From a virus, in UHGV virus genome UHGV-0302546: a stretch of 8,485 nt of DNA; one strand, given 5' to 3'. Below are positions 2,912 through 4,123 of the stretch, piece after piece (positions within the stretch are counted from its first letter, which is position 1; the number at the start of each line of letters is the position of its first letter). The position numbers were made by a program, and so were the translations under genes. The notes beneath the pieces are model-generated. The model did no database searches. It was not told the DNA's origin and worked only from the letters and a program-made list of their open reading frames with translations.

Positions 2912-4123
2912 TCACTTACTCTTCACATCAAACGAAAGCATTTTGTCAGTCAGTACATCCCCCTTTGATACTGTCCCCGACGAGCCTGACCAGAACGTCA
3001 CCCTTTCACCGTCAACATTCAGTTCCGTGGCGCTGCCGTTCCATGGCTGAAAAGCGGTATAACGTCGCACCTGACCCGCCGGACCCAGCAGCACAAAATA
3101 AGGACTTGCTCCCCTGACATATCCGGCAAGCCGCCACTCCTTTGATACCGGAAGCACATCCGGTTTTTTCTGTCTCAGCTCTGATACAACCGTTGACGCA
3201 GGCAAAGGATGTGCAGGTGTCACGGTGCTTTCAGGCACAGGAGGGACAGCGGCACTAACCTCCCGATCGCCGGAGAAATAATGTCGGGCAACGGCAATCA
3301 TCGCGGTGACGAGGAAAAGAAAGGCAATCAGCTTGCCCCACGGCTTTTTCTGTGGGGTGGCCTTTTTTTCGGGTTGTTGAGATAACGGATTCATGGTTTT
3401 AAGTGTGCGCCCGGGCAAAACGGAATAAACAGCACGCATATCCACAAAACGGCCATTAAGCAGCTCCATTCCGTCAGAGAAAATGAAATTAGTGTCGTAA
3501 ACGTTGTAATAATCCGCAGCCCTGATAATGATTTTATCTACGGGACGACGTGCCGCGTGAATCGTGCCGTCATAAAGAAACGTACTGGCAGCCACGTAAT
3601 GAGGAATAATCCCCCTTTTACCTGATGCAACCCCTGTTTTTCCTGGTCTGAATAATTCCATCAGTGGCGTAATCACAGGAACACGTAATTCATCAAGACG
3701 GCGGCAGCGAATAATTTTAGCCCCCATCGCCTTAATTATCTGGGAATCAATCATATCTTCATGCTGTGCAATCAGATAAACATCCCAGCCCAGCTTACGG
3801 GAATGTATCAGCCAGTCAATTAACGGTAATCTGTCCTTACGGGCAAAACCACGGGTATTCAGCCATGTCGCACACTCATCAAGAAATAACGCTCCGAAGC
3901 GTGTTTTTTCATTTTCAGGACATCCACGACCAAGAAGCTCAAAATCTTCAATGCGGGGCATGGCCGGAATAACCGTAACGGGGTTATCCGAACCTGAGGA
4001 CATATATTCAGTGTTAAGCGGATAATTTGCCGCAACCCGTAATCCACGGCGATAATAAAGTGAGGCAAAATAAGCTGCAACAATGCCTTTACCCTGCCCC
4101 AGATTTCCGGTGATAACTGGCAT
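2912..4123 (-). CDS. gI: pI / Zot-family phage assembly NTPase (403 aa)
   Basis: N-terminal P-loop region (GNLGQGKG), Walker B LFLDE, and blocks [42 protein letters not shown] and [16 protein letters not shown] that align with recalled M13 pI. Internal TM segment [15 protein letters not shown]. Start is 3 nt after the gVI stop. Confidence 0.9.

Follow-up and report, generated by a model that had tools for sequence, protein, structure and literature searches.

A candidate SD-independent internal start in gene I of an Escherichia coli filamentous prophage family and the pXI-like protein it may encode

Gene I (gI) of the filamentous-phage genome UHGV-0302546 carries at codon 244 (3394..3392) an in-frame ATG that may be a functional, SD-independent internal start yielding a pXI-like protein; on the analysis described here, the probability of this is put at about one half. 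The stretch of DNA analysed, 8485 nucleotides in length, is referred to throughout as the window. Initiation by ribosomes at M244, stability of the product and a need for it in assembly are what we infer. If the internal start is real, two proteins are encoded by gI in this widespread family of E. coli prophages, one of which has been missed by annotation, and the site illustrates the selection of starts through mRNA accessibility, independently of an SD. The practical consequence would be small, confined to annotation and to how assembly-complementation experiments on these prophages are designed, and the understanding of filamentous phage assembly would be unchanged. The start would be a further case of a known device, with a divergent tail and spacing.

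THE GENOME AND GENE I

The window is a filamentous-phage (inovirus-like) genome or prophage in which every long ORF is found on the minus strand. Small genes are also present, among them a gVIII-like coat gene, alongside the following larger genes and the SD of gI:

6821..8473, minus strand: replication endonuclease gene (ORF list, Pfam)
4485..5747, minus strand: gIII, with a Phage_Coat_A domain and Gly/Ser linkers
4126..4482, minus strand: gVI-like gene (ORF list)
4129..4134, minus strand: SD of gI's own start, AAGGGG (anti-SD duplex -8.4 kcal/mol)
2912..4123, minus strand: gI with its stop codon, encoding a pI/Zot-family assembly ATPase of 403 aa and 44.9 kDa
1512..2750, minus strand: gIV, phage secretin, adjoining gI (ORF list, Pfam)

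The layout of gI follows the pI/Zot pattern, with an N-terminal P-loop ATPase, a single transmembrane helix and a periplasmic C-terminal domain. Residues 5-144 match the Pfam Zot family (PF05707, E=3.2e-09), and the gI product is 30.7% identical to protein I of f1/M13 over residues 4-245, that is, in the cytoplasmic ATPase part only (tblastn). The gene is flanked by the gVI-like gene, gIII (Phage_Coat_A) and the secretin gene, which make up a filamentous-phage morphogenesis module. A megablast search of 50,697 phage records with the whole window found no close match, and the relatives used for comparison come from IMG/VR, from protein clusters and from genomes of E. coli; a scan of genome contigs returned mainly distant betaproteobacterial loci and a single enterobacterial one, and was of no help on conservation of the Met. 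Of 5426 complete E. coli genomes, 272 contain matches to the window, and most of gI is present in 22 of these. Lysogens include E. coli 10035776-3 (NZ_CP159170.1), whose gI is 99.6% identical, and AST205. Parts of the element occur at up to 15 places per E. coli genome and 188 of the 475 matching places are on plasmids, which indicates that some segment of the window is common to other mobile DNA. Truncation by an IS element is seen in several related gI genes (ISEc31 in L029; IS2 adjoins L031).

THE ATG AT CODON 244 AND ITS SURROUNDINGS

The original prediction had placed an in-frame ATG at gI codon 244, and this holds: the frame reads to the stop codon of gI and spans 160 aa. The features of the site and of its putative product, for which AlphaFold was run with a 22-sequence alignment, are as follows:

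3395..3410, minus strand: the 16 nt upstream of ATG244 (gcgcacacttaaaacc), without an SD and A-rich beside the start
3392..3394, minus strand: candidate internal start, ATG of gI codon 244, in frame as read from the sequence
2912..3394, minus strand: candidate pXI-like frame, 160 codons plus TGA, predicted 17.5 kDa and isoelectric point (pI) 9.8
3341..3391, minus strand: cytoplasmic tail of the putative product, basic, Pro-rich and predicted to be disordered, overlapping the least structured part of the gI mRNA (codons 241-251)
3333..3360, minus strand: hairpin CCCCAC...GTGGGG, 34-61 nt downstream of ATG244 and outside the ribosome footprint
3275..3340, minus strand: transmembrane helix, residues 262-283 of protein pI (product 19-40), Kyte-Doolittle maximum at 265-283, pLDDT 86-89
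3155..3274, minus strand: Pro/Ser/Val-rich periplasmic linker, pI residues 284-323 (product 41-80), pLDDT 47-55
2975..3154, minus strand: conserved C-terminal beta domain, pI residues 324-383 (product 81-140), from alignments, pLDDT ~90

M244 follows the ATPase domain and precedes the helix, and is thus cytoplasmic (the Zot domain reaches to about residue 144 and homology to f1 pI to about 245). It is 21 residues ahead of the Kyte-Doolittle core of the helix (265-283) and 18 ahead of the AlphaFold helix (262-283). No SD was found for ATG244, the best anti-SD duplex being -2.5 kcal/mol at a spacing of 14, against -8.4 kcal/mol at gI's own start; the statement in the original prediction that no SD is evident was thus well founded. 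Codon 243 shows synonymous ACC/ACA variation in a 98% relative. Upstream of codon 244, the minus strand showed no sigma-70-like promoter, and nothing therefore indicates that the short form has a transcript of its own. On the plus strand, the hairpin at 3333-3360 reads as a terminator-like site of 11 pairs followed by a T run, and the region 2700-4300 holds seven such sites, where 1.8 are expected from shuffles.

The presence of M244 alone proves little; what goes beyond chance is its setting, described below under initiation signals. There are 10 internal Met in the 402 residues of gI, and the chance of at least one falling within the 25-28 residues that separate the LPGR motif from the helix is 0.47-0.51, such that a Met in this linker is to be expected about half of the time. 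This, together with the lack of an SD, favours the main alternative, namely that M244 is an ordinary internal Met of pI, at which there would be little or no initiation or only harmless noise, a pXI being unneeded or pI alone sufficing. We regard this as a serious possibility, falling somewhat short of an even chance, and the evidence that bears on it is given at each point below.

THE PUTATIVE PRODUCT

The product would be identical to the C-terminal 40% of pI, without the ATPase: a 160-aa, 17.5-kDa membrane protein of N-in/C-out topology, made up of a basic tail, a helix, a Pro-rich linker and a beta domain. In the AlphaFold model, product residues 1-18 (the tail) form no helix (pLDDT 53-65), and a helix in the tail is excluded by its four prolines. 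The net charge over the first 21 residues is +4, with which an N-in/C-out topology fits, as for pXI. The periplasmic linker is fast evolving, differing from the 87% clade by 9-12 nonsynonymous substitutions in every 20 codons, and the beta domain holds the most conserved C-terminal motif of the family (WRL.GY...PY.VL...G..R...QP..G..TEL.VDGE.VTFWSG). The top structural neighbours of this domain are the HR domain of GspC (3oss_C) and PilP (3jc8_Pa), both as weak, non-significant matches; a profile of the C-terminal alignment found nothing meaningful among PDB sequences, and the 160-aa sequence has no stand-alone entry among ~15 billion proteins. The putative product resembles GspC (HR domain; type II secretion) and PilP (type IV pili) in consisting of an anchor, a Pro-rich linker and a small beta domain. 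GspC and PilP are inner-membrane adaptors that contact secretins, and gI adjoins a secretin gene.

COMPARISON WITH KNOWN INTERNAL STARTS

In M13, gp11 has been shown to begin at M241 and is abolished by the substitution M241L; in M13/f1, and as far as is known in these alone, it is essential, together with gp1, for assembly, and it co-purifies with pI (PMC5408679, PMC9228878). The candidate shares with the pXI of the Ff phages (M13, f1, fd) a host gene of the same family, encoding a P-loop ATPase, one helix and a periplasmic C-domain, and an in-frame ATG in the cytoplasmic part, a short way ahead of the helix, giving a product that consists of a tail, the helix and the periplasmic domain. In both cases there is almost no SD (-3.1 kcal/mol in M13, -2.5 kcal/mol at M244), and the start is the most accessible NTG of its gene. 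The two differ in that experiments have proven the Ff product and shown it to be essential, whereas that of the window is a candidate from sequence. The Met of the window is 18-21 residues before the helix, whereas the spacing is 13 residues in M13, IKe and If1; hence, of the claim in the original prediction that M244 occupies the same relative position as the Ff pXI start, the location ahead of the helix stands but the spacing does not. The periplasmic part is also longer in the window, with its Pro-rich linker and beta domain, and the tail is Pro-rich and disordered, unlike the basic MKLTKIYLKKFSR-type segment of the Ff phages. M13, IKe and If1 share the motif M(K/R)xTKIYxKKxxR right after the Met, of which the tail in the window shares only the positive charge (+4). 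The basic juxtamembrane segment of the Ff proteins is an amphipathic helix, and its absence from the tail is a further point in favour of M244 being an ordinary Met. As the identity of ~31% is confined to the ATPase domain, M244 and the Met of M13 cannot be called homologous.

Codon 242 of IKe gene I and codon 241 of If1 gene I likewise provide an in-frame ATG before the helix, with a weak, distant SD and low local structure; unlike the window, both carry the Ff basic motif and the 13-residue spacing. Gene XI is without annotation in the RefSeq records of M13 (NC_003287.2), IKe (NC_002014.1) and If1 (NC_001954.1; L001, L050 and L051, respectively, in our set), although gene X is annotated in that of IKe. 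Since RefSeq omits gene XI even in these phages, the absence of a pXI annotation in the window is uninformative.

Two further systems are comparable in kind. In viruses of this kind, gene X (pX) of Ff and IKe arises by internal initiation too and encodes a C-terminal fragment; it differs in being located in gene II, in having a replication function and, in IKe, in having an annotated ribosome-binding site. Internal starts of E. coli mapped by retapamulin profiling, such as that of ArcB-C (bioRxiv 10.1101/520783), also use internal AUGs and yield N-terminally truncated isoforms, but many of them show an SD-like sequence, and they are in chromosomal genes and have direct experimental support.

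INITIATION SIGNALS

Potential starts were scored with a simplified initiation energy, dGtot, in which the SD duplex, a spacing penalty, the start codon and the cost of unfolding the footprint are added together. In this home-made, simplified model, validated on three related Ff-type genes only, M244 has a dGtot of -1.2, against 0.0 for gI's own start, and ranks first of the 67 internal NTGs of gI. Under the same model, the proven start at codon 241 of M13 gene I ranks first of 50 internal NTGs, and the corresponding Met codons of If1 (codon 241) and IKe (codon 242) rank first of 55 and third of 65. Across the whole minus strand of the window M244 is eighth of 479 NTGs, eight of which score -1.19 or lower; four of those eight are starts of recognised genes (6790, 6032, 4482 and 5729). 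M244 therefore scores like validated pXI starts and like the real gene starts of this phage, which speaks against its being an ordinary Met.

An independent measure is the ensemble opening energy, which over positions -15..+15 in a context of 200 nt is 3.9 kcal/mol at M244, the lowest of the 67 sites; the next site is at 7.5, the median is 12.9 and gI's own start is at 8.0 kcal/mol. At the pXI start of M13 the value is likewise 3.9 kcal/mol (first of 50), with an SD pairing of just -3.1 kcal/mol in the same scoring. Over -30..+33, the M13 site folds with -3.4 kcal/mol against a gene mean of -8.4, and M244 with -3.7 kcal/mol against a gI mean of -13.0 +/- 4.2, codons 241-251 being the least structured of gI. 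The argument of the original prediction that a start without an SD is a weak one carries little weight in this comparison, because the validated M13 start fails the SD test too and is singled out by accessibility in the same way as M244; SD strength was consequently dropped as a criterion. The initiation signals of M244 are thus comparable to those of the validated Ff site, subject to the simplified nature of the model and to an accessibility that is in part generic to the linker.

It has been reported that start choice in E. coli does not need SD pairing, and that the marks of a start are an A-rich upstream sequence and low structure (PMC7043885). An AUG as accessible as M244, with A-rich sequence upstream, is therefore expected to initiate in E. 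coli, which again weighs against an ordinary Met. In the mechanism proposed, 30S subunits would load on the nearly unstructured, A-rich stretch of gI mRNA around codons ~241-251, and translation would begin at codon 244 without an SD; initiation there, if any, may be inefficient for want of one. By analogy with Ff pXI, the product might then co-assemble with full-length pI into an inner-membrane ring that meets the gIV secretin.

IS THE ACCESSIBILITY SELECTED?

If M244 is an ordinary Met, the accessibility would come from a juxtamembrane linker that is basic and flexible and whose Lys, Gln, Glu and Pro codons are rich in A. When the 21 codons around M244 were recoded synonymously using gI's own codon usage, the mean fold was -10.1, compared with -3.7 for the native sequence, and 1.5% of the recoded sequences were equally open. 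The recoding z is the highest in gI at codons 242/244 (~2.0-2.1, the region ~238-250 being less structured natively), against a gene mean of 0.05, and this region also stands near the top for z in a relative that is 87% identical; this signal at the level of synonymous codons argues against an ordinary Met. On the other side, in many homologs that lack an in-frame start there, the 30 codons before the helix still hold a stretch that is among the most accessible of the gene, ranking second in L040, L042, L045 and L046 and third in L031. This favours M244 being an ordinary Met and means that its accessibility is owed at least in part to the basic linker, whose Lys/Gln/Glu codons are A-rich, and is to that extent a by-product. 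The accessibility of M244 is no evidence of purpose, yet initiation there is mechanistically no less likely for that.

CONSERVATION OF THE START AMONG RELATIVES

Conservation of the Met, which the original prediction had proposed as a check, was found to be split: M244 is invariant at protein identities of at least 84% and absent from most clades at 37-57%. Among 91 homologs and the members of the protein cluster, M244-N245 is kept in every close-clade sequence that covers the site (~46 distinct, at least 84% protein identity), and positions 240, 242, 243, 246 and 248-250 vary around the invariant M244. The 87% subclade reads CCA GGA CGA ATG CTT ATG ACC ATG, with three in-frame ATGs behind AGGA; it has added Met240 and Met242, and its ATGs rank 2-3 of 76-81. 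If M244 were an ordinary Met at which initiation did harm, one would expect the codon to disappear; instead, all ~46 variants keep it and the subclade has gained two more.

Below the close clade there is a gap in identity, down to 57%, after which the M244 column holds V, W, F, Q or L; that the Met is missing from most related clades agrees better with an ordinary Met. In the Salmonella L002 and in L031/L062, L032-34 (the E24377A type), L039, L045, L046 and L048, the stretch from the DMR motif to the helix holds no plausible in-frame start, and nothing usable was found in L042, L044, L047, L070, L071 and L075. Several of the clades at 37-57% identity lack any in-frame ATG, GTG or TTG in the linker. 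The GRWQKRV clade has at the place a GTG without a signal.

Other lineages do have candidates. In L030 (positions 1200-2487 of this locus; E. coli A34, NZ_CP028741.1; ~54% identity), an SD, GGGGAGGTG (-12.3 kcal/mol), is followed at a spacing of 7 by an ATG that ranks first of 71. This ATG is codon 243, one codon upstream of the M244 column of the same gene family, after the conserved LPGR motif, and its SD is composed of the GGG (Gly) and AGG (Arg) codons of that motif, where the window reads CCC GGG CGC without an SD; the A34 start differs also in being 34 residues before the helix. The ATG of L073 has an SD and precedes the helix by 21 residues (rank 1 of 69), and those of L077 and L079 precede it by 4 residues (ranks 1 and 2). 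The equivalent ATG is preceded by GGGGAGA in L040 (rank 8) and by GGGGAAA in L041, where it is outside the scored zone. By our own tally, an in-frame ATG 3-30 residues before the helix is found in ~5 of 14 lineages against ~7 expected from Met frequency, so that across the family Met is not enriched ahead of the helix; by the same kind of tally, a top-3 in-frame candidate is found in ~6-7 of ~25 lineages (three of them Ff-type), against ~2 expected by chance.

The literature describes an internal start in gene I of 'most filamentous phages' (PMC5408679) and also states that it is 'not always conserved' (PMC10011098), an inconsistency that the patchy distribution across lineages matches. If real, the start in the window would add a non-Ff example to this question, and its patchy distribution across Zot-family prophages would be a modest point for specialists. 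A broader reading can be put forward as a tentative and rather doubtful one: that enterobacterial prophages of the Zot family make a pXI-like protein by SD-independent initiation at an AUG within a structure-free, A-rich juxtamembrane stretch, that this start has repeatedly been gained, moved, strengthened (as by GGGGAGGTG in A34) or lost, that the short product, with its anchor, Pro-rich linker and HR-like beta domain, is a GspC/PilP-like adaptor coupling the inner-membrane ATPase ring to the secretin, and that the need for pXI is specific to the lineage.

OTHER SOURCES OF A SHORT FORM

A short C-terminal form could instead be made by proteolytic cleavage of full-length pI. A proteolytic short form has been reported for the Zot protein of CTXphi; gI belongs to the Zot family, and the disordered, flexible linkers on both sides of the helix would be accessible to proteases. 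The sequence holds no pointer to a cleavage site, however, and cleavage would leave unexplained the accessibility, the synonymous-codon signal and the invariance of the ATG, such that we consider it improbable as the source of a short form in place of internal initiation, with which it is nonetheless compatible, the two not being mutually exclusive.

A start at another in-frame codon, for example Met229 (in the VDMR motif) or GTG227, is more improbable still: although M229 is kept in at least 90% of 24 aligned homologs, far better than M244, its conservation is explained by protein structure, as it lies inside the conserved motif DMR..YS.LPG, and M229 and GTG227 have dGtot values of 7.3 and 6.2 (ranks 35 and 26 of 67), local folds of -11.6 and -16.7 and no usable SD. 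On account of poor scores, M229, GTG227, TTG236 and M219 were all rejected as starts. At 3456 there is an out-of-frame ATG preceded by GGAG at 7 nt; its frame is only 21 codons long and it scores poorly (dGtot 4.0), and it was judged to be due to chance.

OTHER FEATURES OF THE WINDOW

No match to any Rfam family was found anywhere in the window. Within gI, codons 81-160 have 0-2 differing codons per 20-codon bin in comparison with the 87% subclade (L026-L028), whilst in the remainder of the gene ~1 codon in 3 differs; from the sequence, window 3640-3870 (gI codons ~85-160, ~75 codons) looks like a recent recombination tract, which would make gI a mosaic.

For the gVIII-like gene and gIII, the starts given in the ORF list (TTG 6050 and ATG 5747, respectively) score poorly, whereas ATG 6032 (80 aa, SD -5.8) and TTG 5729 (414 aa, SD -7.2), both on the minus strand, score like real starts and are probably the true N-termini of these genes. 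Among the eight best NTGs of the strand there is also an in-frame GTG in gIV (2142-2144, minus strand), which has an SD-like run of -9.4 kcal/mol at a spacing of 4 and a dGtot of -1.9; a 210-aa C-terminal secretin fragment would result, but the signal may reflect merely the G-rich codons for Gly and Val. On the plus strand, three small, consecutive ORFs (451..633, 702..917 and 914..1162) are opposed to the morphogenesis genes, and a similar C-terminal motif, ..V.H(F/L)I.NYL(N/D).A..D.I, is present in the first two; the small ORFs of this region (451-1162) are possibly paralogous small regulators.
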